37,860 nucleotides of DNA, from IMG/VR virus record IMGVR_UViG_2541047762_000007; one strand, given 5' to 3'. Positions 2,812-37,860 of this stretch are shown here, in pieces. A model generated the notes under the pieces. That model worked only from the letters and a program-made list of their open reading frames with translations, did no database searches and was not told the origin of the DNA. The position numbers were made by a program, and so were the translations under genes. This DNA is from a virus (Duplodnaviria; Heunggongvirae; Uroviricota; Caudoviricetes). Within the stretch, counting starts at the first letter, position 1. Every line of letters begins with the position of its first letter.

Positions 2812-4398
2812 TCACGCCGCCCTCACGATATAGTTAAATGCGATATTGCGGGGGCGAGCTGATACATAAGCCCACCAGTCATATCTTTGTGCACCTTTAG
2901 AGGATGCATCAAATATCCACTTTTTGCCATTTATGACCCCCAGTTGATTAGAGGTTAAAGCGTCACCAAATCCGTATTGTGTAGAGCCGAGCGAACTGAT
3001 ATCTCCGGTATTATTATCATCAAAACCGGATACGATAGTCCCTTCCTGAAATGAAAGTACCGTACGCCCGGTATCAACCTTGCGACCACCGTCCCATCCA
3101 CGGATAAACTCACCGCGCAAATCGGGAAGACGGAGGGTCGGGTAGACTCTGGCCAGAACAGGATATTGTTCTTTGGTGAACGTAGCTCCGTTGCACTGTA
3201 ACCAGCCTGCTGGCGGTGTGGCGGTGGGCCATGGAACCGGTACACCAACAGGCAATGCAGAGCCTTCCCCCAAACCAAGGTAATTGAGGACATCTTTTAT
3301 ACTGCCCTTAGCGATAATAGCGCGACCAATAGCTGTAAGGGTTGCCAGCGCTGCGCGGTCTGCTCCGGTAAAATAAGGCAACCGATCTGCTGCAGTGGCA
3401 AGTCCTGCCAGAGCAGTGAGCGTGGCATCTGCCGGTTGTTTTCCGTTTGCCAGATCGTATGCAGCCTTGACGGCCTTTGGTGTGGCGGCCAGCGTTTCAG
3501 ACGTGCTGTTGATGGCGCTGCTCAATTGTACGGTGCCTTTTGCCGTCAGCGAGGCAGCAGGCACTCCCGTTATCTGACTCCACGGGTGAGTGTGGCTGAC
3601 GGGCGCCTTGCCGGCTGCAAGGTCGTATGCAGCCTTGACGGCCTTTGGTGTGGCGGCCAGCGTTTCAGACGTGCTGTTGATGGCGCTGCTCAATTGTACG
3701 GTGCCTTTTGCCGTCAGCGAGGCAGCAGGCACTCCCGTTATCTGACTCCACGGGTGAGTGTGGCTGACGGGCGCCTTGCCGGCTGCAAGGTCGTATGCAG
3801 CCTTGACGGCCTTTGGTGTGGCGGCCAGCGTTTCAGACGTGCTGTTGATGGCACTGCTCAGTTGTACGATCCCTTTACGGGTCGTTGTTGCATCCTGGGC
3901 TGTGTATTTTCCCCGGGCCAGATCATACGCGATTTTCACAGCCTTCGGCGTGGCAGCCTCAGTTTCTGATTGACTGTCCGTGGCACTGCTCAGCTGTACG
4001 GTGCCTTTTGCCGTCAGCGAGGCAGCAGGCACTCCCGTTATCTGACTCCACGGGTGAGTGTGACTGACGGGTGCCTTGCCGGCTGCAAGGTCGTATGCAG
4101 CCTTGACGGCTTTTGGTGTGGCGGCCAGCGTTTCAGAGGTGCTGTTGGTGGCACTGCTCAGTTGGGTGAACCCCTTAGCTGTCAGTGTCGCGTCCGGGTG
4201 GTTACGGGAACGTACGTGTTCAGCCAGTGACTGTGCGGCTTCCTCCGTTTTTTTCTTCAGCCATTTCGTCCTGTTTGCCAGTTGCCGGGGGGCTCGATTT
4301 GATATCCCGTCTGCACCACCCAGAACCGGATCTGATGTCTCCAGTTGATAGATATTTTCTTCCCACTTTTCTGTTTCATTCAGGTTTCCCATAATCAA
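2812..4398 (-). CDS. Tail fibre protein with internal tandem repeats
   Basis: 528-aa ORF with repeated fibre motifs (TAKGTVQLSSAxxSTSETLAATPKAVKAAYDLA, SHTHPW). C-terminal part lies inside the invertible segment. Position matches Mu S. Confidence 0.9.
   Translation of the reverse strand: MIMGNLNETEKWEENIYQLETSDPVLGGADGISNRAPRQLANRTKWLKKKTEEAAQSLAEHVRSRNHPDATLTAKGFTQLSSATNSTSETLAATPKAVKAAYDLAAGKAPVSHTHPWSQITGVPAASLTAKGTVQLSSATDSQSETEAATPKAVKIAYDLARGKYTAQDATTTRKGIVQLSSAINSTSETLAATPKAVKAAYDLAAGKAPVSHTHPWSQITGVPAASLTAKGTVQLSSAINSTSETLAATPKAVKAAYDLAAGKAPVSHTHPWSQITGVPAASLTAKGTVQLSSAINSTSETLAATPKAVKAAYDLANGKQPADATLTALAGLATAADRLPYFTGADRAALATLTAIGRAIIAKGSIKDVLNYLGLGEGSALPVGVPVPWPTATPPAGWLQCNGATFTKEQYPVLARVYPTLRLPDLRGEFIRGWDGGRKVDTGRTVLSFQEGTIVSGFDDNNTGDISSLGSTQYGFGDALTSNQLGVINGKKWIFDASSKGAQRYDWWAYVSARPRNIAFNYIVRAA
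3061..3290. repeat. Right inverted repeat of invertible tail-fibre segment (gix-like site at 3265..3290)
   Basis: Reverse complement matches 1674..1889. TTCCCCCAAACCAAGG at 3265..3280 is the inverted partner of the left site. Confidence 0.7.
3440..4200. repeat. 168-bp (56-aa) tandem repeats within tail fibre gene
   Basis: Three near-identical units are in register at ~3455, 3623 and 3791, followed by two more diverged units. The plus-strand shadow ORF 3436..3969 shows the same period. Confidence 0.85.
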
Positions 4399-4973
4399 CT
4401 GCTCCCGTGGTTATAACTGCCATCATGGATGGCAGTATTGTTATAGCGAATGGCCACAGACTGATACTCCAGGCTGGCCAGATGGCAGCGGGCCGGTGCA
4501 AATGCAGCCAGCGTCTGACGCAGCATCGCGGCCTGATCGTTAGTAATGGGCTGTTTCAGAATAACGCGATAAACTGCCCAGGCGGCTGCATCTCCATGAA
4601 CAAACAGTCCGTTATAGCTGCGATTGCCGTCGTAACTGAGACGACCTGTGCCTTCAATCAGATCCACTTCACCAAAGCCAAAACGGCGGATAACTTCCCG
4701 GATTGACCACGGCGTCCCTTTATACCGGTGCAGTTCGATGGCTGCTTTTATAAGCATGCGGCGAACATCGTCCGATTCCGCCAGCTCCCAGCCATCGCCA
4801 GACAGTGAGAACTGCTCGCCCAGCCATGGCAGCGCGGAACTGTCGACGATATCGACGAGAAAGACCATCAGTACGCTCAGGTCGATGTTATCCAGCCGTC
4901 CTGCCAGTCTTCCCAGCGTCCTGAGACTGATATCACCCTCAAGCGGTGGCGGGAGTTGTAATGGCTCAGTCAT
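4395..4973 (-). CDS. Baseplate protein (P2 gpI / Mu gp48-like)
   Basis: Size and position between the baseplate J-like gene and the tail fibre; overlaps its neighbours. Confidence 0.7.
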   Translation of the reverse strand: MTEPLQLPPPLEGDISLRTLGRLAGRLDNIDLSVLMVFLVDIVDSSALPWLGEQFSLSGDGWELAESDDVRRMLIKAAIELHRYKGTPWSIREVIRRFGFGEVDLIEGTGRLSYDGNRSYNGLFVHGDAAAWAVYRVILKQPITNDQAAMLRQTLAAFAPARCHLASLEYQSVAIRYNNTAIHDGSYNHGSS

Positions 4974-6069
4974 CAGACACTCCAGTCATGTTAAGAGTGA
5001 TTGCCGTACAGTTTGCCCATTCGTTTTCTGCCACCACCCGCAGTGCCGGTGTCACCAGTTCAACCTGGTACACCCCGGAAACGGACAATGCACTGATAAT
5101 CTGGCTGGGGACAATATCGCGCCCCAGCGTGGCGGCACGTGATGCCACCCAGTTCTGTATGGCGCTGTTAGCGGCATCTTTTACAGACCTGGCATCCTGA
5201 TCACGATAGATCGTAATCCTGGCTTCAATGGTGTAATCCACCTTCACTGGTGTTTTAGCCCGCACTGTATCAGTGAGTGGCCTGACTTTCTCATCAGAGC
5301 AGAAACTCTCTACCAGCGTGAGAACACCGCCGTCCGGCAGACCGGTACTGAGCAGCGGATACAGATCTACGGTCCCGGGAACCGGGGAAAGCACAGCAAC
5401 ATCGACAATGTTGGGATGGGCCTGCATGGCATGAAAGCGGTATGCGCCACGGCTTCCGGCATTGGTGAATGACTCCGGGGCCAGCCTGATACGCTCCCGG
5501 AGCCTGTCATCGTCTTCCTGTTCTGAACCGCCGGAACTGGCCGTCAGATTGCTCACCAGCAGGTCGACGTTATCAATCTCATCGAGTAACTGACTGACCT
5601 GCGCAGGTTGCCAGCCGTTACCAGCGGTACCGGGTTCGGTACAGGTGGACGTGACATTGACCAGCAGCAATCCGGCCTTCAGTACCACATCTGTATCGGT
5701 GGCAAAAATAACGCTGTCGGAAGCGCTGACGCGGGTGCCTGCCGGGATCAGCACATCAATGGCCAGTGCCTCATCTACGGAGAACTGGAGCGTGGTGGTG
5801 GCAGGCTGCGCGGCAAGACGGTATACACCGACCAGTTCACCGAGGTAATCAATCATCGGCTCACGGGCAAAGGCGACCAGATTCTGCTTTGCTGCCTCCT
5901 GTACCGCAACCCTGACCAGCATTTCGCGATAGGCCCACAGATCAATCAGCAGACGTTCTGCCTGTGCCGGGTACAGCGTTTTGCCGGTATCCGCTTCATA
6001 CTTCGCAATCATTTCTGCCGTGATTTTGTCGGCATCGCGTTCAATAAAATCGGGTTCTGTCAGCGCCAT
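4966..6069 (-). CDS. Baseplate J-like protein (Mu gp47 / P2 gpJ-like)
   Basis: 367 aa, position and composition match baseplate J family; translationally coupled to neighbours. Confidence 0.8.
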   Translation of the reverse strand: MALTEPDFIERDADKITAEMIAKYEADTGKTLYPAQAERLLIDLWAYREMLVRVAVQEAAKQNLVAFAREPMIDYLGELVGVYRLAAQPATTTLQFSVDEALAIDVLIPAGTRVSASDSVIFATDTDVVLKAGLLLVNVTSTCTEPGTAGNGWQPAQVSQLLDEIDNVDLLVSNLTASSGGSEQEDDDRLRERIRLAPESFTNAGSRGAYRFHAMQAHPNIVDVAVLSPVPGTVDLYPLLSTGLPDGGVLTLVESFCSDEKVRPLTDTVRAKTPVKVDYTIEARITIYRDQDARSVKDAANSAIQNWVASRAATLGRDIVPSQIISALSVSGVYQVELVTPALRVVAENEWANCTAITLNMTGVSDD

Positions 6070-6407
6070 AGCAGCTCCTGAGTCCGGGTCTGTCCGTCTG
6101 AGCCTTTCCAGCTCACCCGGAGCGTAAGATGTTCGCCGTCGACGGCGGGTTTAACTGACATAAGCTGGCAGCGGGGCTCCCAGCGCCGGATGGCATCGAC
6201 GGATTCGCGCACCACATGCGGAATGGCCCGGTCTACAGGCCAGTCGATATAAAGATGCAGATTGCTGCCGAACTCCGGGCGATGCGGGTCGCTGCCGCGG
6301 GGAGTCCGCAGGATAATTTGAATCGCCTGCCGGATATCATCCAGCCCCCGGACAATTTCGCCGGGAGCCTGCAGAGTTGGTTGCCAGAATACTGAGGTCG
6401 TTTTCAT
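6060..6407 (-). CDS. Baseplate wedge protein (gpW/gp25-like)
   Basis: 115 aa with gpW/gp25-like features (GSDPHRPEFGS...), located upstream of the J-like gene. Confidence 0.75.
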   Translation of the reverse strand: MKTTSVFWQPTLQAPGEIVRGLDDIRQAIQIILRTPRGSDPHRPEFGSNLHLYIDWPVDRAIPHVVRESVDAIRRWEPRCQLMSVKPAVDGEHLTLRVSWKGSDGQTRTQELLWR

Positions 6408-6532
6408 GGAGGCAGTATTGCCCCCGTGCGGGAACGCTGATATTAAAGGGATTTAAAAAAACGTAAAATGGTTGAGCTTATTGAAAAACAGCCAATATTG
6501 TTAATTAATAATCACCTGAAAACGGAGGTTTT

Positions 6533-6718
6533 ATGAAGAAAAAATTTTTTCAGATGACAAATAAAAGTCATTTCATTAACCCGGAACACATCGTTGAAGC
6601 ATACTTTACAGTTAAAGGTACTTTCGAAATAACACTTTCAACAGGTAAGAAAATTCAACTCGACGAAAGCGAAAGCAAGTATCTGATGGATGTATTTGAT
6701 TTTGAGAAGCCACTCTAA
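6533..6718 (+). CDS. Small AT-rich moron ORF (61 aa), unknown function
   Basis: Antisense to the surrounding baseplate operon. Strong SD (ACGGAGG) 5 nt before the ATG, AT-rich upstream region with -10-like TAAAAT, and an intrinsic terminator immediately downstream. Confidence 0.55.
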   Translation: MKKKFFQMTNKSHFINPEHIVEAYFTVKGTFEITLSTGKKIQLDESESKYLMDVFDFEKPL

Positions 6719-6727
6719 TTGCCAGTG

Positions 6728-6751
6728 AGGCCGCCCGGTGCGGCCTTTTTT
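6728..6751 (+). terminator. Rho-independent terminator of the moron ORF
   Basis: GC hairpin AGGCCGC-CCGGT-GCGGCCT followed by a T-run (6746..6751). Confidence 0.75.
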
Positions 6752-6755
6752 CATA

Positions 6756-7352
6756 TCAATGAGAATGGTGATTAGAGTTAGAGCCATCAGACAGCATACT
6801 GCCCGTGGCATGGGCATTCCCTTTAATCTCGATATTGCCATGGATGGTCGCGGTAACACCTTTACCACCAGAACCCGCCATGCCTCCTTCGTAAATCAGC
6901 TTTCCCCTGACACGCAGCTCTCCGGTAAGTTCGGTTTCCGGTGCGTCAATCGTGGCTTTCTGTGTTTTCAATACCACATCAGCACCACACTCAATGACAA
7001 TATGCTCAATGCCGCCCCGGATGGTCAGAGTGTGCGTCTTCCGGTTGTAGCTGTACTCTGCACCATCAGCAAACCGGGTTCCCCGGATATTTTTGTCACT
7101 GAACGGTGGTTTATCGACGTCTGAATACACCGCGCCCAGAATAACACCATCCTCGCCGTTGGCATCGAGCAGCACCTCAACCTGCTCCCCCACGTCAGGG
7201 AGCCAGTAATCTTTGTTATCCTGGGTATTGCGCTGCAGCACGTTAAGCCAGTTTGTGCGCAGGTTATCGCATTCAGGCAGACGAACGCGGGCCTGAACCC
7301 TGTCGGCATCAACGGCACTGACCGTACCGACCTGACGAGTGACACCAGTCAT
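6756..7352 (-). CDS. Baseplate spike/hub protein (P2 gpV / Mu gp45-like)
   Basis: 198 aa with glycine-rich, His-rich C-terminus typical of gpV spikes; sits between the gpD-like and gpW-like genes. Confidence 0.75.
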   Translation of the reverse strand: MTGVTRQVGTVSAVDADRVQARVRLPECDNLRTNWLNVLQRNTQDNKDYWLPDVGEQVEVLLDANGEDGVILGAVYSDVDKPPFSDKNIRGTRFADGAEYSYNRKTHTLTIRGGIEHIVIECGADVVLKTQKATIDAPETELTGELRVRGKLIYEGGMAGSGGKGVTATIHGNIEIKGNAHATGSMLSDGSNSNHHSH

Positions 7353-8706: not shown

Positions 8707-9587
8707 ACACTCCTCGTCAGTATTCTGGCGGCCACTGCACTTAATCCCGGAGACATGCGGTTGAATGCTGTGCCGGCGGCGTTAAGCTGCCCGGAAACGG
8801 TATCCAGAGCACCTGCAATATTTCTTTTGTCCACACCACTCAGCGCAGACTGTGCCTGCTGTACATACGTGGCTGCTTCGCTGGCTGTTCTGGCCAGACT
8901 GATGGCATCGGGCATGGATTCAGAGAGTGCGTTAAACGCCGGAACACTTTTCCCCAGAGCCCCGGAGATATTACCCAGTCCGCTCATCAGCCCCGGCACA
9001 CGGGTCAGTGCGACAACGGGGTTATCCTTCATTTTCTGTGTCACCCGAACGGCGCTGATAGTGGTCTGGAGTACAGACTGCGCCTGTTTCGCATAGTTGA
9101 CGCCGTTGCGGATGAACTGCGCCACCCCTGAAGGTGAAGGAATGGCACCGGAGACCGCCCCGACACCCGGGAGCTTCGTGCGTATTGCCGGTGGTTGCAG
9201 AGGATTTTTCGGGTCACCGGTGTATTCCCGGAGAGACACGGTGGCACTGACAGCCAGCACGTTGCCGGTACTGTCAGTCTGCTCGCTGGTTGCAGTCACA
9301 TCGGTAATCACGAACCAGCCGCGATAGTCACCGTTGCCGAAGACCAGCGCCAGTGCCTGATGGGCTTTCATGGCTGTTCGCAGTCTCGCCAGCTCCACAT
9401 CGGGTACACAATAATGCTGATGGAAAACCAGAGTTATCTGGATTTCGTCCAGCCTGTCGCCGACGAATTGCAGGCCAGGCTTCCCCCCGATGCGGGCATG
9501 CTCCGCATAATCGACGCCGAACGTGGCCTCGAAGCCGTCCCAGTAGGTAATCAGCTCAAACTCAATATCACCCAGTACGGCAAACAT
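8703..9587 (-). CDS. Tail protein (Mu N / DNA circulation protein-like position)
   Basis: 294 aa, immediately downstream of the tape measure gene and coupled to it. Confidence 0.55.
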   Translation of the reverse strand: MFAVLGDIEFELITYWDGFEATFGVDYAEHARIGGKPGLQFVGDRLDEIQITLVFHQHYCVPDVELARLRTAMKAHQALALVFGNGDYRGWFVITDVTATSEQTDSTGNVLAVSATVSLREYTGDPKNPLQPPAIRTKLPGVGAVSGAIPSPSGVAQFIRNGVNYAKQAQSVLQTTISAVRVTQKMKDNPVVALTRVPGLMSGLGNISGALGKSVPAFNALSESMPDAISLARTASEAATYVQQAQSALSGVDKRNIAGALDTVSGQLNAAGTAFNRMSPGLSAVAARILTRSV

Positions 9588-12538
9588 CAGCGGTACTCCT
9601 TACGTTGTTTCTGAGCCAGCAGACGCTCCAGCATTTTTTCCAGCTCATGCAGACTCATATTCAGGGCACCAGTCAGTCCTGCAGGCGCTGTGGTTTCCCT
9701 GCCATTGAGGAAAAACTGAGGATTAAAGCTGACCTGGATACCACCAGACGTTCCACCGCCGGTTGCAGCTGCACCACGGCCTGAATATCCGGCAGCCAGG
9801 ATTTCAGGCGAGGGGATACGGGGAACATCCGGTGTCATCTCATTTGCCAGACGTTGCCCTGGTAAAATCGATGCCCGGGTGGAGAGCGGAATAGCGGGCA
9901 TGGAAGACAAACTATTGATTACGGATCCGATCGCATTTTTAGCAGACGACATAAACCCGTTGATATCGGGCAACGGCATACTGAAGCGAACACCTGAAGT
10001 GTTATCCCGTATTTCTGGCCCCTGAATGCTCACGGGCATTTTGGGGAGCAGTTCACTGACCATTCGCTGACCGGCCAGAGCTGCAAGCGGAGTGCTCCGC
10101 TGCAGGCCAATGGCGGCCCCCTGCGCGATATTGTCACCAAAGCCCATAAACACGCGGCTCGGCGAATGAATGCCCAGCTTTTCGCTGAACCAGCCACTGA
10201 TGCTGTCGCCCATTCCGGTTACGCTGGTTTTGAGTGACTCCCATTTGTTTTTGATACCGTTAATCAGACCGTCGACAAGATGGCCACCGAAGTCGGTGAA
10301 CTTTGCCGGCAGCTCAACGCCGAGATATTTCAGCGCAGCTGCAAAGGCTTTATAGAGCAGACCTGCCGGCGACCAGTTAATCAGCAGCTTACCAGTTCCC
10401 ACGATACCGCCGTTAAAGGCTTCCTGAATGTCAGCCCAGCGTTGTTTAAACCAGCTACTGATGCTGTCACCCATTCCGGTTACACTGGATTTGAGCGCCC
10501 CCCATTTGTTTTTGATACCGTTAATCAGACCGTCGATAAGATGGCCACCGAAGTCGGTGAACTTTGCCGGCAGAGCAACGCCGAAATATTTCAGCGCAGC
10601 CGCAAAGGCTTTATAGAGCAGGCCTGCCGGCGACCAGTTAATCAGCAACTTACCAATTCCCACAATGCCGCCGTTAAAGGCTTCCTGAATGTCAGCCCAG
10701 CGCTGTTTAAACCAGCCACTGACTGCCCCCCAGTTGCGGTAGATAAGGTAAGCTGCTGCCGCGACAGCGGTGATAACGAGACCGATGGGATTCATCATCA
10801 GCGCACGTCCAATCCAGAGAACAGCACGTCCGGCGAGCATAATTCCGCGAACCAGCCCCCCGGAGAGCACGCCACTCAGTGTTCTGGCTCCTCTGGCGAC
10901 GGCGCTAAATCCGGTCACCAGCCAGCGGAGCTTACCGCCTTGCCCCAGTGCGAGCGACAGACGAAGCCAGTTGGCCCGAAGTAAAACAGCATTTTTCCAG
11001 ACACTTACAAAGGGGGAAATAAGGAGATTCAGCCCCAGTTTGAGACCAACAGTCGCTATCTTAATCGCAAGGAGCGCACTGATGAGCTTAAAAGCCCCAC
11101 TGACAAATTGCGGGTGAGTCGCTACCCAGTGTTTTGTCCCCTGAATGAGTGGGAGCAAGTCCTGAGTCAGAGAAATAAAAGATGGAGCTAATTGATCGCC
11201 CAGCGTAATTGCCAGATCGCGACTGCTGACCATAAGTGCTTTAGTGGCTTCAAGGGGAGATTTCAGCCGCTGATCATAAGCACTGGCAAGCAAATCGTTA
11301 TCCGCAGCCCTGAGAGCACCGGCGCGGATCTCGCGATATCTGTCCATGTTGGCCAGCATCGGGCGGATAAATGCCATGACCTGCATATCCGCGAACATAT
11401 CACCCAGACCAAAGTTTTTCGCCAGAGCCTGAAGTGCCTCATCTCTTGCCGTATCATTCTTTATTTTCATGGCGGATTTGAAGCCGGCCAGCGCTTCGGG
11501 GCTTTTGGCATTGAGGTAACGTTCTATAACACTCAACATCCCTTCAATCGGAGAGATCCCCGCAGCCTTATAACTCGCAATAGATCCCTGCAAATCAATA
11601 CCCAGATCAGCAAACTGTTTCTGAGTATCGCGGGCAAAAATTTTGGTAAGAAAGTTTTTAAAATTATTGGCTGCCTCGTCGGTGGAACCTGCACCGATTT
11701 TTGCTATCTGGAGACTGGCCCCGATTTCAGCAACAGCCTCTTTTCCACTGGCAATACCCGCCATCATTGGGGCCAGGGACTGCATCCACTTGACCTGATC
11801 CGGGATTTCAAATGACCCCTGGTCACCGGCATAAGCCATAATATTCTGAACGGCACCAAAATCTCTGGCCGCACCTTTCAGGGAGTTTTGCCAGACTGCG
11901 GCCACTTTTGCCCAGTCCTGAGCAGACGTGCGTGTTGCCGTTGCCGCGCGGGCAATATCCGGCATCAGAAAACCGATATCTGACACATTATCAATATTGT
12001 CGCTGATGAGTGAACCCACCGCCTCCTGCAGCTCATCCTGATACTGATTGTATTTAAGCGCCCAGCCTTTTATCTGTCCGGCAAGTGCATCCCGCGTTTT
12101 ATTGTCATATTTTGCGGTGATCGACATATCAATCATTTTGTCCTGAAAAGACATGGACTGCTGAACGGCAGGGGAAACCGTATGATAAACAGTCTGTGCC
12201 ATGCCATACGCTTCAATCCCCTGACCATACAGCGCCATGCGGTTAGCTTTCAGCGCATCACTGGTAGCGGATGCCGCTGACAGACGGCGCTGCTGGCGCT
12301 CAATTTGCTCCATGGTGCGGCTTACCCGCAGCAGCTCGCTGTTGAGATGCTGCATCTGGGAAGAACCCAGTTGACCATAACGTTCTGTTGCACGGGTTAA
12401 AGCGTTCTGACGTTCCTGCAGGCGGCGTGAGGTATCGCTCAGGGAATCAAGCGCACGGCGGGTACCGCTCATTGCAGAACGGAATGTGCTGCCAATCATC
12501 CCGCCGATAACAACGCCGACTGAAAACTGTCCCGACAT
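9587..12538 (-). CDS. Tail tape measure protein
   Basis: 983 aa, helical N-terminus, hydrophobic central segment, located between chaperone and baseplate genes; contains an internal tandem duplication. Confidence 0.9.
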   Translation of the reverse strand: MSGQFSVGVVIGGMIGSTFRSAMSGTRRALDSLSDTSRRLQERQNALTRATERYGQLGSSQMQHLNSELLRVSRTMEQIERQQRRLSAASATSDALKANRMALYGQGIEAYGMAQTVYHTVSPAVQQSMSFQDKMIDMSITAKYDNKTRDALAGQIKGWALKYNQYQDELQEAVGSLISDNIDNVSDIGFLMPDIARAATATRTSAQDWAKVAAVWQNSLKGAARDFGAVQNIMAYAGDQGSFEIPDQVKWMQSLAPMMAGIASGKEAVAEIGASLQIAKIGAGSTDEAANNFKNFLTKIFARDTQKQFADLGIDLQGSIASYKAAGISPIEGMLSVIERYLNAKSPEALAGFKSAMKIKNDTARDEALQALAKNFGLGDMFADMQVMAFIRPMLANMDRYREIRAGALRAADNDLLASAYDQRLKSPLEATKALMVSSRDLAITLGDQLAPSFISLTQDLLPLIQGTKHWVATHPQFVSGAFKLISALLAIKIATVGLKLGLNLLISPFVSVWKNAVLLRANWLRLSLALGQGGKLRWLVTGFSAVARGARTLSGVLSGGLVRGIMLAGRAVLWIGRALMMNPIGLVITAVAAAAYLIYRNWGAVSGWFKQRWADIQEAFNGGIVGIGKLLINWSPAGLLYKAFAAALKYFGVALPAKFTDFGGHLIDGLINGIKNKWGALKSSVTGMGDSISSWFKQRWADIQEAFNGGIVGTGKLLINWSPAGLLYKAFAAALKYLGVELPAKFTDFGGHLVDGLINGIKNKWESLKTSVTGMGDSISGWFSEKLGIHSPSRVFMGFGDNIAQGAAIGLQRSTPLAALAGQRMVSELLPKMPVSIQGPEIRDNTSGVRFSMPLPDINGFMSSAKNAIGSVINSLSSMPAIPLSTRASILPGQRLANEMTPDVPRIPSPEILAAGYSGRGAAATGGGTSGGIQVSFNPQFFLNGRETTAPAGLTGALNMSLHELEKMLERLLAQKQRKEYR
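10190..10715. repeat. 261-bp tandem duplication inside tape measure gene
   Basis: CCAGC(C/T)ACTGA...TGCTGTC recurs at 10190, 10451 and 10712, in frame (87 aa). Two full copies of WFKQRWADIQEAFNGGIVG...SVTGMGDSIS appear in the protein. Confidence 0.85.
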
Positions 12539-12613: not shown

Positions 12614-12871
12614 CTATGATTTGTCGCCGTACTCGCTTTTGATTTGCTCTTCAGCCTGCTCCAGCCACATCTCCAGATCGTCAGTATCGAGGGCATCAAT
12701 CTCCCCCGGCTGAAACCGGAACCATCTCGCCAGCAGCCCCTGCGCCTGCGTCAGCGCCCTGGTTGCTCTCACCCATCCCCGTGATGAGCTGAAATCGTTT
12801 CTGTAACTGCAGGTAATCAGCCAGATCCATATTGTCGAGATCTTCCGGGAGAAGACCAGTACTGCGGGCAA
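12614..12871 (-). CDS. Putative frameshift extension of tail assembly chaperone (GT-like C-terminal part)
   Basis: Open frame overlapping the 3' part of 12696..13031. Its distal part (EIDALDTDDLEMWLEQAEEQIKSEYGDKS) looks protein-like; its proximal part does not. Confidence 0.4.
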   Translation of the reverse strand: MPAVLVFSRKISTIWIWLITCSYRNDFSSSRGWVRATRALTQAQGLLARWFRFQPGEIDALDTDDLEMWLEQAEEQIKSEYGDKS

Positions 12872-13031
12872 TCAGCGGTTCGTCCCAGTCTGCCGGGTTT
12901 TTGCTGATTTTGCGCACCTGCTTCAGGTCTTTTACCGTCAGGCGTTTCAGTTCAACCTGCTCAATTCTGGTGCCTGCAGCAGTGGTGAAGGGATAAGACA
13001 ATTTAAAAGTATCGGATGGGGTCTGTGACAT
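12696..13031 (-). CDS. Tail assembly chaperone (G-like), candidate frameshift donor
   Basis: 111 aa directly upstream of the tape measure. A second ORF (12614..12871) overlaps in the +1 frame and ends just before the tape measure gene. Confidence 0.55.
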   Translation of the reverse strand: MSQTPSDTFKLSYPFTTAAGTRIEQVELKRLTVKDLKQVRKISKNPADWDEPLIARSTGLLPEDLDNMDLADYLQLQKRFQLITGMGESNQGADAGAGAAGEMVPVSAGGD

Positions 13032-13128
13032 GATTGTGCTCCTGTGTAAGTTCAGGGCAGTATGTCGGGAGAAGCGCGTGACGGATATTAAAGGAGATTA
13101 AGAAGAAGGGGCCGGAGCCCCTGTGATG

Positions 13129-13410
13129 TCAGCAAGTGCGAAACCCCTTGCAGTTACGCAGGAAAGCGATGAGAAGCGTCTTTCCCTCAGATTTGCCGGT
13201 GCCGGAGAACCAGTGGTCGGGAGGCTCCCATGCTTCAATCAAATCCGCCAGTTTGCGGGCCTTTGAACGTGTGCAGTCAATCGGGTCATTGGTTTTACGG
13301 GTATTAAAAAGGGTTTCCACCCCCGGAATATCAAGGAGGGTAAACCACGTACCATTTGACATGCCCAGTGCCGCACATCGTCCTCCTTTATCCGTCAGTT
13401 CAACACTCAC
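13129..13410 (-). CDS. Hypothetical protein between tail tube and chaperone
   Basis: 93-aa ORF tightly packed after the tube gene (GTG start); no recognisable motif. Confidence 0.35.
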   Translation of the reverse strand: MSVELTDKGGRCAALGMSNGTWFTLLDIPGVETLFNTRKTNDPIDCTRSKARKLADLIEAWEPPDHWFSGTGKSEGKTLLIAFLRNCKGFRTC

Positions 13411-13412
13411 CG

Positions 13413-13934
13413 TCAGCCCCCGATATTGATACGGTAGTCAGTCAGTTGATCAACACCGCCGACCCGGAAGATGTTGGCCAGATAGTCCAGTTGCAGCAGC
13501 TCTTCACCATCCAGTACCTGTCTGATATACGTGCAGGTGAAGCTACTGGAGAACTCGGCGTTCTCGTGCTGTTTGAACGTCCCCAGCGGGTTCTTCTTGA
13601 ACATAATCGTCAGGAAGGTGACCAGCGGGATTTCGTCAATCAGCCCCTGCGAGCTGTAGCGCTGGACGCTGGAACGACACTGCAGTGCCAGCGACCTGTA
13701 CGGGTTCGCGGCTGACAGCATCGCATCGCGGTAAAAGCTGTTCCATTTGATTTCGCCTTCCAGTTTGTCAAAACCAGCCGGGAGTTCCACCTTACCCACC
13801 ATCCCCAGCGCCTTGTGTTCCTGCATAATCATGGAGACATCGGGGAGTTTAACTTCCTCAGCCCGTCCCAGCAGGTTAGTACCATCCAGATAGATGTTGG
13901 CATTCGTGATGCGGTTTATCTCAATCTTTGACAT
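13413..13934 (-). CDS. Tail tube protein (Mu M / P2 FII-like)
   Basis: 173 aa immediately downstream of the sheath gene. Confidence 0.8.
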   Translation of the reverse strand: MSKIEINRITNANIYLDGTNLLGRAEEVKLPDVSMIMQEHKALGMVGKVELPAGFDKLEGEIKWNSFYRDAMLSAANPYRSLALQCRSSVQRYSSQGLIDEIPLVTFLTIMFKKNPLGTFKQHENAEFSSSFTCTYIRQVLDGEELLQLDYLANIFRVGGVDQLTDYRINIGG

Positions 13935-15361
13935 CAGTTGCCCCCTTTCAGGGTTAACAGGTATTCCGAGGTGATCTCAGTCTCAAACGTCAGTCGCTCC
14001 AGCGGCGGCGGTGGCGTATATTTGTAGCTCAGCAACAGGTGCCCGGCGGCCAGCTCCGTCTCCGGATTGCGGGCCGGATCAAACCAGCAACGGAAGCCCA
14101 GTACCGCACCATCACCAGTCATTTTGCGACCGTAGGCGTTGACCGACTCCGTCAGTGCATCAATCAGCGCCTGAGTAATCGGCATGTCGATGTACTGCTG
14201 GCTGAAATAACGAATGGACTCGTTGATCACATCACCGGTGCGGCGAACGTTCTCAAAGTTACGCATATGGGTGACCGTTGGCCATGCTGCCGTCCGGTTA
14301 CCCCACAGACGAAGGCCGCTGCCGTAACTGCTGAATACCGTGGTGATCCCCTGTTCGTTAAGCAGGTTCACCTCACTCTGCGGGTCATCAATCATCGCGG
14401 ACAGCTGGCGCTCCACGCCGGTGATCCCCAGAATCTCCTGATTGGAGGATGACCACCAGTAGCCCTTGTCCAGATCGACTCTGGCACGCAGACCTGCTGC
14501 ACGCTGGCTGAGCGGCTCCAGACGCTCTGTGTTTGTCACCGGGTCATATACCTTCACATGCGGATAGCACAGACGGACGCGGTCGGAGCTGGTATTGAAG
14601 TTGATGGTGCCTTCCGGGCCACGACCTGCCAGAGCCTGTGCAAAGGTGGTACCGACAGGCGCATCAATGTAGGTTACCGCGCCCAGCTTCTCTGCCATGG
14701 CGATAAGCTCAACTGCGACACTCTTCTGGGTGCAGAACACCGGCGCAATCAGAATTTTGGCGAAATAGCCGTACAGGTTGAAGCTGTCGTTAAGCAGCTT
14801 CATGCCGGTTCGGTTTCCGGCGCTGTTCACCCCGCCGATGATGTCCGCCGCAGTCACCTTCGACGGGTCCGCGTACTCATAGCTCACCTTCACGCTGCCA
14901 CCGGCCTCAATAGCCTTGCCCAGGTTCGTGAGCACACCCGCCTGCGCATCAACACGGTAGTCCGTGTTCGCCGTGTGGGTGGTGCTGCCTTCACTGTTTT
15001 TCACCACCACATTAGCGACAACCGGATGCGCCAGTCTGGCCTGCCCTGTCGATTTGTCAAAGGTAACCACCTCATCCTCGATCGCCGTTTTATGTTTCGC
15101 CGGGTCGAGGACGTTAATGACCAGAACGGTGCCTGCACTATGGTCATAAATCGCATCCAGCGCCTGCGGAATGGTAAAGCCGGTGAACTGGCTGCCAAAT
15201 GCCGCTGCGTCTTTCTCAGACAGGCACTGTACCAGCGTATTGACATCCCCCATCGGGGCGGTACCAATCAGGCCAATAACGGCAGATTTCACCGTTTTAA
15301 CCGGGCGGGCTCCGTTTTCCACCTCAATGGTTTCGACGCCATGCAGATAGTTAGCTGCCAT
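13934..15361 (-). CDS. Contractile tail sheath protein (Mu L-like)
   Basis: 475 aa, sheath-like composition, followed by the tube gene. Confidence 0.9.
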   Translation of the reverse strand: MAANYLHGVETIEVENGARPVKTVKSAVIGLIGTAPMGDVNTLVQCLSEKDAAAFGSQFTGFTIPQALDAIYDHSAGTVLVINVLDPAKHKTAIEDEVVTFDKSTGQARLAHPVVANVVVKNSEGSTTHTANTDYRVDAQAGVLTNLGKAIEAGGSVKVSYEYADPSKVTAADIIGGVNSAGNRTGMKLLNDSFNLYGYFAKILIAPVFCTQKSVAVELIAMAEKLGAVTYIDAPVGTTFAQALAGRGPEGTINFNTSSDRVRLCYPHVKVYDPVTNTERLEPLSQRAAGLRARVDLDKGYWWSSSNQEILGITGVERQLSAMIDDPQSEVNLLNEQGITTVFSSYGSGLRLWGNRTAAWPTVTHMRNFENVRRTGDVINESIRYFSQQYIDMPITQALIDALTESVNAYGRKMTGDGAVLGFRCWFDPARNPETELAAGHLLLSYKYTPPPPLERLTFETEITSEYLLTLKGGN

Positions 15362-18945: not shown

Positions 18946-19160
18946 TTTGCTGTCCCGCGTTATGTTGTCGGAGACAGTTTGTGAGAAATGCAGGCCCGGC
19001 GATTTTAATCTGCTTTAGAAAACATCAGGGGAGAAGGACAGGGAAAGCAATGCGGTGAACCGGAGGCGGTTATAAAACAGAGGCTGTAAAGCCTTTATAA
19101 AGGTAATACAGCCCCTCATTCGCTGGCAATGATTAAATCACCCGCCTGAAGGGAGAAACC
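18946..19160 (-). promoter_or_regulatory. Intergenic region upstream of protease gene; candidate activator-dependent late promoter
   Basis: 215-bp non-coding gap inside an otherwise tightly packed operon, with a -10-like TAAAAT but no good -35. Mu has a C-dependent promoter at the equivalent position. Confidence 0.4.
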
Positions 19161-26418: not shown

Positions 26419-26548
26419 GTGTGTCTCCTTATCTGGTGGAGACAGCATCACAAATACAGGGCGCGAAGGATTTTAAAGCGCGTTAAGAGAGCCGGGGATA
26501 CGGGATGTGCAGGATAAACGATGAATTATTCACAGAGGAGAATACGAT

Positions 26549-37057: not shown

Positions 37058-37499
37058 ACAACGTCTTATCCAGCTCATTCATATTGCCCGTAATGAACTG
37101 GGTATGGATGAAGACACCTACCGCCAGATGTTACAGGGGCTGACCGGTAAAGCCTCAACCAAAGGAATGGATACCACACAACTAAACTGCGTGCTGGAAT
37201 CCATGAAAAGGAAAGGCTTTCGCGTTAGGCCTGCAGGAAAAGCCAGCTCCGGTTTACCGCTGGATAACCATCCGCAGTCCAGGAAAATCCGTGCGCTATG
37301 GCTTGAAATGGCTGCTGCCGGCATTGTTCGTGACCGTTCAGAAAATGCATTAGCGCGGTGGATCAAGCGGGAAACGGGCATCAGCGCCCTGCGCTGGCTC
37401 AATACTGAACAGGCAAGCAGTGTTATTGAGAAACTGAAGAAGTGGCAGCGCAGAGCTGCGGGAGTAAAACATGAGCGACCTGAATCAGTTTCGAAGTAA
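37047..37499 (+). CDS. gemA: GemA-like protein (Mu gp16 family)
   Basis: Start at ATG 37047 after AAGGAG; pattern TKQRLIQLIHIARNELGMDEDTYRQML...TGK.S matches the GemA family; immediately precedes the Mor-like gene as in Mu. Confidence 0.65.
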   Translation: MMTKQRLIQLIHIARNELGMDEDTYRQMLQGLTGKASTKGMDTTQLNCVLESMKRKGFRVRPAGKASSGLPLDNHPQSRKIRALWLEMAAAGIVRDRSENALARWIKRETGISALRWLNTEQASSVIEKLKKWQRRAAGVKHERPESVSK

Positions 37500-37860
37500 A
37501 GGGCCGGAACTCCTGGTGGAACTGGCACAGCATACCTCTGAGACCGTTCGCGAGATTATTGATATTGAGCCCGCAATTGCCGACCAGATTGGTCAGGCCG
37601 TCGCGAACCGCATGATGCAGGTCTGGGGCGGGCAAAACGTTTATTTCCCGATGGGCATGGTATGGAAGGTCAGTCAGCGCGACCGGGAAATCTTCAGGGA
37701 GTTTAACGGACGTAACCACCATGAACTGGCCCGCAAATTTGGTGTTTCGCTTCAGTGGGTCTACAGCGTGGTTAAGCGGGTAAGAAAAGAAGAACTGGAT
37801 CGGATGCAGGGCAAGCTATTTGCTGATGAACCCGATGTAGATACGGAGAAAAAAGAGTAA
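37471..37860 (+). CDS. mor: Mor/C-family transcriptional activator (likely Mor)
   Basis: C-terminal pattern VYFPMG..W..SQRDREIFREFNGRNHHELARKFGVS..WVYSVVKR matches the Mu Mor/C family. Stop codon is at the last three bases of the window. Confidence 0.8.
   Translation: MSDLNQFRSKGPELLVELAQHTSETVREIIDIEPAIADQIGQAVANRMMQVWGGQNVYFPMGMVWKVSQRDREIFREFNGRNHHELARKFGVSLQWVYSVVKRVRKEELDRMQGKLFADEPDVDTEKKE

Follow-up and report, generated by a model that had tools for sequence, protein, structure and literature searches.

An accessory gene inserted before a terminator-like hairpin between the tail tube and chaperone genes of a BcepMu-like prophage

Introduction

Between the tail tube gene and the tail assembly chaperone gene of the prophage analyzed here lie a short open reading frame, referred to below as ORF93, and a GC-rich hairpin, which raises the question whether this interval holds an inserted gene, a regulatory element of the tail genes, or both. 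An earlier note on this DNA had suggested either a small inserted gene or a partial terminator tuning the proportion of tube to tape-measure protein. We analyzed the coding status, distribution and family of ORF93, along with the conservation of the hairpin and the sequences surrounding it. The term window denotes the whole 37,860-nt stretch of DNA, and all positions are given in its coordinates.

The Prophage and Its Late Genes

The window can be identified as a transposable prophage of the BcepMu-like (Bcepmuvirus) type that is common in E. coli, since it encodes Mu-type Gam, GemA, and Mor proteins and since the 571-bp junction was found in 629 of the 5426 complete E. coli genomes (~12%), mostly with at least 99% identity. 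In E. coli SCU-105 (NZ_CP051738), for example, the identity over this locus is 100%. The region shows 99.7% identity to that of Escherichia phage PhiKM, which is placed in Bcepmuvirus, and ~88% identity to that of Klebsiella phage KP12. In the records of both phages, ORF93 is annotated as a hypothetical protein located between the tube and the chaperone.

The late genes are carried by the minus strand in the following order: sheath (13934-15361), tail tube (13413..13934), ORF93 (13129..13410), a 97-nt non-coding gap extending to the chaperone ATG, chaperone (12696..13031), and tape measure (9587-12538). The tube protein, which is of the P2 FII or BcepMu gp40 type, matches the Pfam family Phage_tube (E 2.9e-53) and is 100% identical to the tail tube FII protein of PhiKM. 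The chaperone, of the P2 E or BcepMu gp41 type, was identified from its matches with Phage_TAC_7 (E 3.5e-22), phrog_166 and phrog_8286 and from the annotation of BcepMu gp41-43; its gene is preceded by a Shine-Dalgarno sequence, AGGAG (13039-13043, minus strand), and overlaps an open reading frame on the same strand (12614-12871) which is presumed to be its frameshift extension.

ORF93 Is a Real Gene

The 93-aa, cysteine-containing reading frame described in the earlier note was recovered in the list of open reading frames at the position given there, on the minus strand and with a GTG start. Only 2 nt separate the TGA of the tube gene from this GTG (...ATC GGG GGC TGA CG GTG AGT...), and a Shine-Dalgarno-like GGGGG is present in the last codons of the tube gene, 6 nt 5' of the GTG. 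Since the two genes are so close together, the translation of ORF93 is probably coupled to that of the tube gene. The start at 13410 is backed by the ATG which relatives carry at the same codon and by the alignment of the family, in which M1, V3, and D7 are near-invariant. A 77-aa version starting from the ATG at M17, which some annotation pipelines propose, was rejected on these two grounds and because the strand formed by residues 2-7 is confidently modelled.

In 1260 pairs drawn from 55 distinct alleles of BcepMu-like loci, the median dN/dS of ORF93 is 0.09 and the maximum 0.27. The AlphaFold2 model, based on an 80-sequence alignment, shows a compact beta-beta-alpha...alpha-alpha-beta domain with a mean pLDDT of 92.5 and a pTM of 0.84. 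The low dN/dS, the conservation of the family, and the pLDDT rule out a non-coding artefact, and ORF93 is a real gene. Among its four cysteines (C12, C46, C87, and C93), C87 is the sole invariant one in the 80-sequence family alignment, which means that the protein has no metal-binding cluster, and the idea of a zinc- or metal-binding Cys protein was rejected. The GC content of ORF93 (0.52-0.555, vs. 0.52-0.56 in the flanks) gives no compositional signature of horizontal transfer by comparison with the flanking genes, and no sigma-70-like promoter site was seen upstream of it.

Distribution of ORF93 in the Tube-Chaperone Gap

A survey was conducted on one locus per bacterial species, found via the tube protein, in which the tube, ORF93, and the chaperone were located (n = 69). 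ORF93 is intact in 14 loci, where it occurs either alone (10/69) or along with a 97-aa Phage_gp49_66 gene (4/69), and is decayed in seven others owing to a premature stop (L015), a frameshift (L021), or an N-terminal deletion (five Photorhabdus loci). In 32 loci, the gap is at most 180 nt long and carries no cargo, and in the remaining 16 it carries other cargo, so that ORF93 is lacking in 48 of the 69 loci and absent or decayed in 55. In this sample, ORF93 was found only where the tube protein is at least 91% identical to that of the window. The other occupants of the slot include gp49/66-like proteins, a cysteine-less ferredoxin-like protein, and PAAR or toxin-like modules.

In BcepMu, the tube gene is followed by a 121-bp gap containing no open reading frame, and then by gp41. 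When the window is aligned with the empty sites of Erwinia, Xenorhabdus, and Pectobacterium, a clean indel of ~280 bp appears between the tube stop and the hairpin. Small cargo on the same strand (ORF93, the gp49_66 gene plus ORF93, a 66-aa ORF, or a ferredoxin-like ORF) is always located between the tube stop and the hairpin, and larger cargo lies downstream of a hairpin, as in L064 (on the reverse strand) and L067. Along with the occurrence of homologues in unrelated types of phages (see below), these data bear out the suggestion of a small inserted gene, and ORF93 is cargo placed between the tube stop and a resident hairpin rather than a component of the tail. The earlier note had counted an absent ORF and a gap conserved as non-coding in homologues as evidence against its proposal; this is what the synteny comparison yields in many relatives, and yet it argues for insertion.

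The Hairpin and the Promoter-Like Element

The stem-loop AGGGGC-TCCG-GCCCCT (13107..13122, minus strand) has a 6-bp stem with five GC pairs, a 4-nt loop, and a predicted energy of -10.3 kcal/mol. It is directly followed by an interrupted T-tract, TCTTCTTAAT (13097..13106, minus strand), running into the left half of the dyad described below; the GC hairpin and the T-rich stretch on the coding strand had been correctly located and described at the outset. The hairpin tops the list of terminator-like sites for the 10-kb region, no terminator-like hairpin as good arose when the local 75 nt were dinucleotide-shuffled 100 times, and the 116-nt intergenic RNA folds as a whole with a z value of -3.6. 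No known RNA family or tRNA was found in the tube-chaperone gap.

The conservation of the hairpin was judged from loop-anchored stem tables and dinucleotide shuffle controls. Most of the relatives in which the gap is at least 100 nt long, whether or not they carry cargo, have a hairpin with a T-rich tail 65-101 nt before the ATG of the chaperone gene. The orthologous hairpins show at least 10 distinct stem sequences, every one of which is complementary: GGCCCAC/GTGGGCC in Pandoraea, GCGAGGGGCC/GGCCCCTTGC in Erwinia, and AAAGGAGGGA/TCCCTCCTTT in Pectobacterium, for example. Downstream of the tube stop in BcepMu lies GGCCCGC-TTCG-GCGGGCC-TTTTTTAAT, a textbook case of an intrinsic terminator (stem GGCCCGC/GCGGGCC-T6) located 56 nt from the ATG picked by the script and ~74 nt from the annotated start of gp41. 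In the shuffle test on 15 lineages, from which BcepMu was left out because the segment tested missed its hairpin, the natural sequence beat 100 of the 100 shuffles in 14 lineages and 99 in the remaining one. Judged by these patterns, the hairpin is ancestral and was present before the insertion of ORF93. It can be described as an intrinsic-terminator-like structure which would end the tube transcript, although termination may be weak or partial since the T-tract is interrupted.

Downstream of the hairpin, the T-tail is followed by the dyad TTAA-N6-TTAA (13088..13101, minus strand), then after 23 nt by a -10-like hexamer, CATACT (13059..13064, minus strand), the AGGAG, and the chaperone ATG. 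The predicted transcript start is near 13051-13052, which places the centre of the dyad ~42-43 nt upstream (-42/-43). The dyad is a putative binding site for an activator of the Mor/C family, the members of which recognize an imperfect dyad situated immediately ahead of a poor -35 element (doi 10.1101/2025.05.02.651988; PMC4461284). The exact dyad/-10 pattern occurs twice in the window, vs. 0.01 occurrences expected. With a promoter profile (nhmmer) built from 59 orthologous gaps, four sites were found in the window, all of which are intergenic, on the late strand, and ahead of a late gene block: 26443-26486, 18991..19021 (minus strand, a weaker copy upstream of the protease/scaffold gene), 13058-13103 (minus strand, before the chaperone), and 6413-6459. 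Two of these four sites are weak (E 1.4e-3, and E 0.028 in the case of that at 18991..19021). The continuation ACTG(Y)C is common to the four sites and ACTG(Y)CTCC to three of them, and the site before the chaperone reads ACTGCCCTG.

The dyad and CATACT are better conserved than the hairpin, and their spacing has been kept from Enterobacterales to Burkholderiales and Neisseriales: apart from Enterobacterales, the block was seen in Burkholderia, Ralstonia, Pandoraea, Chromobacterium, and Lysobacter. The window also carries a gene of the Mor family of transcription activators (37471..37860, plus strand; Pfam Mor PF08765, E 1.3e-43), which runs off the window end and the product of which is a candidate for activating the four promoter-like sites on the late strand. 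Since the promoter-like element comes directly after the hairpin, the chaperone and tape-measure genes are probably under the control of a Mor/C-type promoter of their own, as far as can be judged from the motif.

The hairpin might otherwise be a partial terminator, an attenuator, or a stabilizer of the mRNA 3'-end, in which case read-through would set how much sheath and tube is made relative to chaperone and tape measure, and the motif would not be a promoter. The shortness of the stem (6 bp, -10.3 kcal/mol) and the interruption of the T-tract suggest that termination is incomplete, and some distant relatives with gaps of 2-78 nt have no hairpin (L062, L063, L065, L073, and L076-L079), so that co-transcription of the tube and the chaperone is possible there. 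However, the motif is not only the better conserved of the two elements but also recurs ahead of three other late gene blocks, shows the layout of Mor/C promoters in a window in which a Mor gene is present, and is retained in two loci without a hairpin (L058 and L076), and we therefore regard the read-through explanation as rather unlikely. As regards the earlier suggestion of a partial terminator tuning the tube to tape-measure ratio, the terminator-like hairpin turns out to be a conserved structure, but tuning need not be invoked in view of the promoter-like element just downstream.

The ORF93 Family

ORF93 matches phrog_1239 over its full length (E 4.6e-48, residues 1-93 vs. positions 1-96 of the 96 in the profile). 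Its match with the Pfam family DUF7739 (PF24881) is restricted to residues 12-65 and scores 24.6 bits (E 3.8e-5), below the gathering threshold of 27 bits; a precomputed PF24881.2 match exists for a protein 99% identical to ORF93 (P0001), and a profile including ORF93 retrieves proteins annotated as DUF7739 with E values of 1e-35 to 1e-40 and 99% query coverage. The alignment of ORF93 with the DUF7739 members shares six invariant columns (N19, W22, F83, C87, G89, and F90), and gp22 of phage Sf6 shows 42% identity to residues 1-91 of ORF93 in tblastn (E 1e-14). Judging from these similarities, ORF93 can be assigned to phrog_1239 and regarded as a divergent DUF7739 protein. An HMM search run exhaustively against 1.84 billion representatives gave only 85 clusters, nearly all of which consist of stand-alone proteins of 90-100 aa.

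No functional annotation for ORF93 was found in Pfam, PHROGs, NCBIfam, PADLOC, the PDB sequences, or the searchable literature, and searches of the literature for DUF7739, hkaH, phrog_1239, fHe-Yen8-01, and DUF2737 gave nothing relevant. There is no NCBIfam name for ORF93, and since there is no PADLOC match either, the idea of a defence-system component was rejected. No solved sequence homologue is present in the PDB even at E 10, and Foldseek detected nothing in the PDB at E <=0.001 with the ORF93 model; the only structural match in BFVD, at E 4.2e-4, is an unnamed viral protein and is uninformative. The matches to known folds are thus modest.

The family spans BcepMu-like myoviruses, P22-like and lambdoid phages, and SSU5-like phage-plasmids. 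In Sf6, gp22 belongs to the PL operon, where it is located between the DUF2737 and Ea22-like genes, near abc2 and a Lar-like gene. Other homologues were located among the early genes of Edwardsiella phage EPP-1, beside rdgC on the downstream side of the repressor in a lambdoid contig, and, in SSU5/pHCM2-like phage-plasmids of ~92 kb, between DNA methyltransferases and a 2400-aa ADP-ribosyltransferase (ART) polyvalent protein, an arrangement also found in 85-92-kb contigs. Homologues in these settings show 38-55% identity. That of fHe-Yen8-01, gp123, is annotated in its record as a 'particle associated protein.'

Discussion

The arrangement which we consider likely is that two late transcription units meet at the tube-chaperone gap and that ORF93 is an accessory gene inserted before a pre-existing terminator. 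The first unit would start near 19.0 kb, with the weaker motif copy at 18991..19021 as its presumed promoter, and comprise the protease/scaffold, capsid, and connector genes, continue with the sheath and the tube, and end with ORF93. The terminator-like hairpin would end this head-sheath-tube unit, and a promoter dependent on a Mor/C-type activator, located after the T-tail, would restart transcription for the chaperone, the tape measure, and the downstream tail genes. ORF93 was probably acquired horizontally, entering a spacer of ~30 nt between the tube stop and the terminator; since it was inserted at this point, it would have no promoter of its own and, as the final cistron on the abundant mRNA of sheath and tube, would be transcribed late along with them.

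The product of ORF93 is predicted to be a compact, cytoplasmic, non-acidic alpha/beta domain. We suggest, with low confidence, that it binds a protein of the host or the phage and serves, as a dispensable accessory factor, in host takeover or counter-defence, in view of the neighbours of its homologues elsewhere (anti-RecBCD, restriction alleviation, RdgC, Erf, and polyvalent ART), the mobility of the family, and the dispensability of the gene.

A further step would be to suppose that the protein is made late, packaged in the virions, and injected along with the DNA to act in counter-defence or takeover at time zero of the following infection, P22-like phages expressing it early via PL instead. 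The location of ORF93 as the last cistron of a structural late transcript is in keeping with this idea, as are the presence of family members in the early operons of lambdoid phages and the annotation of fHe-Yen8-01 gp123, whose cluster neighbours (a methyltransferase and an ADP-ribosyltransferase toxin) also carry particle-association notes and correspond to the neighbourhood of the ART polyvalent protein in the 85-92-kb contigs. On the other hand, 'particle associated' is a record annotation for which no supporting paper was found, neither a packaging signal nor a capsid-targeting motif of a known kind could be identified in ORF93, and the place before the terminator is explained equally well by neutral insertion into a permissive spacer, so that packaging seems to us improbable. 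The same degree of doubt applies to the more general proposal that DUF7739 is an uncharacterised counter-defence or takeover family, of which the prophage carries a late and possibly packaged copy, and that the spacer between stop and terminator is a dedicated cargo slot; if this were true, the slot could be mined for anti-defence or fitness genes.

It is very unlikely that ORF93 serves specifically in the tail, as an assembly or structural protein such as a tube-associated factor. Its location between the tube and the chaperone, tightly next to the tube stop, is what would be expected of such a protein, but BcepMu and 48 of the 69 related tail modules lack it, seven loci carry it in decayed form, and it has homologues in the early operons of tailless-tube podoviruses (Sf6, CUS-3, and HK620-type phages); the quite different places which the homologues occupy in their genomes rule out a tail-specific role. 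Equally slight is the probability that ORF93 is a DNA mimic like Neisseria DMP12, its best structural match, since the two proteins share 8% identity with a Foldseek probability of 0.23, ORF93 has 11 Asp/Glu vs. 13 Lys/Arg and lacks the strong negative surface defining DNA mimics, and Sf6 gp22 is likewise not acidic.

The finding is by itself of little importance. The extra ORF of a prophage present in ~12% of the complete E. coli genomes is accounted for as an accessory gene belonging to an uncharacterised family, the regulatory interpretation of the hairpin is put right, and a map is obtained of four candidate Mor-type late promoters and of the operon boundaries in enterobacterial BcepMu-like prophages. 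In many genera, the spacer between the tube stop and the terminator and the boundary at 6.4-6.8 kb serve as slots whose cargo varies. There is now a confident structural model, along with a curated alignment, for DUF7739, which is a reasonable candidate for anti-defence screens because it adjoins anti-RecBCD, restriction-alleviation, and polyvalent-protein genes in other phages.

Comparison with Known Systems

Like ORF93, Sf6 gp22, HkaH of HK620 and CUS-3, and HCM2.0097c of pHCM2 are stand-alone single-domain proteins, with 38-57% identity over ~93-102 aa. The subclade to which ORF93 belongs differs from the Pfam members of DUF7739 in that it scores just under the Pfam threshold, and in its setting: ORF93 is part of the late structural operon of a Mu-like myovirus, whereas its DUF7739 kin occur in early-left operons or in the accessory blocks of phage-plasmids. 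The small alpha/beta proteins DMP12 (3w1o), CdiI-E479 (5j4a), and YfbM (1ryl) show 7-12% identity to ORF93, and a relationship with them has no Foldseek support.

ORF93 is an ordinary accessory-gene insertion at a late-operon boundary and is nothing categorically new. P2-like phages carry the non-essential genes orf30 and Z/fun at the boundaries of their late operons, and anti-CRISPR (acr) loci occur as insertions within the head-gene operon in Mu-like phages of Pseudomonas. ORF93 resembles morons and the P2 genes in being an extra gene at a boundary between late transcription units, and differs from morons in that it relies on the resident terminator and is expected to be expressed together with the late genes only. 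Two of the four features by which morons are recognized (PMC2920897; for the definition, see also PMC3594210) were found in ORF93, namely its insertion between genes which are adjacent in relatives and the occurrence of its family in several classes of phages; the other two, a promoter and terminator of its own and a deviant GC content, were not, the terminator being a resident one also present at the empty sites. A classic AT-rich moron in reverse orientation is present at a second boundary in the window (6457-6755). The acr loci, like ORF93, consist of small accessory genes at a fixed permissive site in the structural region where the cargo varies between relatives, but unlike ORF93 they have their own promoter, an aca regulator, and a demonstrated anti-defence function (for the accessory regions of Pseudomonas Mu-like phages, see PMC4378225).

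The late promoters of Mu (Plys, PI, PP, and Pmom, activated by C) and its Pm promoter, activated by Mor, have the same layout as the promoter-like element described here, with an imperfect dyad located 5' of a poor -35, and a -10-like hexamer, although the window motif TTAA-N6-TTAA differs from them in sequence. Mu and this prophage both encode a protein of the Mor/C family, and the window carries four sites on the late strand. Mu is not known to have a late promoter between the tube gene M and the following tail genes. The regulatory layout proposed here would therefore be that of the C-dependent late promoters of Mu with an extra promoter between the tube and the chaperone.

Genes Inserted between the Tail Tube and the Chaperone

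ORF93, the 93-aa accessory gene of the DUF7739 family (13129-13410, minus strand), is not the only cargo carried between the tail tube gene and the tail assembly chaperone gene in the loci collected from relatives (L-numbers). In six Pectobacterium spp. loci (L046, L047, L048, L051, L053, and L056), a cargo of about 109 aa lies between the tube stop codon and the chaperone, flanked by two hairpins. It matches the plant-type 2Fe-2S ferredoxins (Pfam Fer2, 27.5 bits), and the cysteines serving as cluster ligands appear to have been replaced (…LPYSSRAGADPSSVARLISGQVDQSD…). Larger inserts occupy the same slot in Chromobacterium sphagni (L064, 2.2 kb) and in a Neisseriaceae bacterium (L067, 1.5 kb), and in both cases the hairpin still adjoins the tube gene and the late promoter motif still adjoins the chaperone gene. 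The former insert contains reverse-strand ORFs, one of which looks PAAR-like and another lysozyme-like by eye only, and the latter contains a pair encoding 296 and 115 aa, which could be a toxin-immunity module. In Pseudomonas phage Komp_PAO1_1 (L007), a reverse-strand ORF of 63 aa (3104-3295) without any Pfam match is present in the gap downstream of the tube hairpin, and in Pantoea stewartii (L018), a transposase ORF of the IS type, encoding 319 aa on the reverse strand (~3590-4980), is located between ORF93 and the hairpin/promoter block.

A 97-aa protein of the Phage_gp49_66 family (N4 gp49 / Sf6 gp66) is encoded between the tube gene and ORF93 (at ~3024-3320) in L011, L012, L014, L018, and L021. 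In the SSU5-like phage-plasmids, a gp49_66-like gene (L165 667-1347, a faint match) also shares an accessory block with DUF7739, and a functional link between the two genes is possible. Three database proteins (P0053, P0065, and P0066; 153-154 aa) combine DUF2737 (PF10930) and DUF7739 in a single product, which mirrors the adjacency of genes 23 and 22 in Sf6; the two may be genuinely fused, or the product may be an artefact of gene calling.

Two short contigs (L010 and L084) labeled as Arthrobacter sp. GMC3 and Y81 encode a tube protein that is 100% identical to that of the E. coli prophage and most likely reflect contamination of those assemblies. In the tape-measure gene of the window, a stretch of 261 nt (87 aa) is duplicated in tandem and in exact register (10188-10709), and the copies are 93% identical. 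The record of the near-identical Escherichia phage PhiKM shows a sequencing gap in the tape-measure gene, probably because of this repeat.

Late Operon Boundaries and Promoter Motifs

A second late-operon boundary (6457-6755) separates the baseplate-V-like gene (6756-7352) from the gp25/W-like gene (6060-6407). It harbors a classic moron, a reverse-oriented ORF of 61 aa (MKKKFFQMTNKSHF...; 6533-6718, plus strand) with a GC content of 29-32% vs 55-62% in the flanks, its own Shine-Dalgarno sequence (GGAGG) and its own terminator (GGCCGCCCGGTGCGGCC-T6). Its Pfam match with LytTR is borderline (23.1 vs 22.6 bits). This ORF lies directly upstream of a copy of the late promoter motif at 6413-6459. 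The window has four such copies (26443-26486, 18991-19021, 13058-13103, and 6413-6459), which are all on the minus strand and consist of a dyad of the TTAA-N6-TTAA type, 23 nt and a -10-like motif. After the -10, ACTG(Y)C is common to all four copies and ACTG(Y)CTCC to three of them. All four lie at the head of late gene blocks, and a terminator-like hairpin is also present upstream of the motif in the gap at 18946-19160. The four copies constitute a candidate Mor-dependent late regulon, paralleling the four late promoters of Mu.
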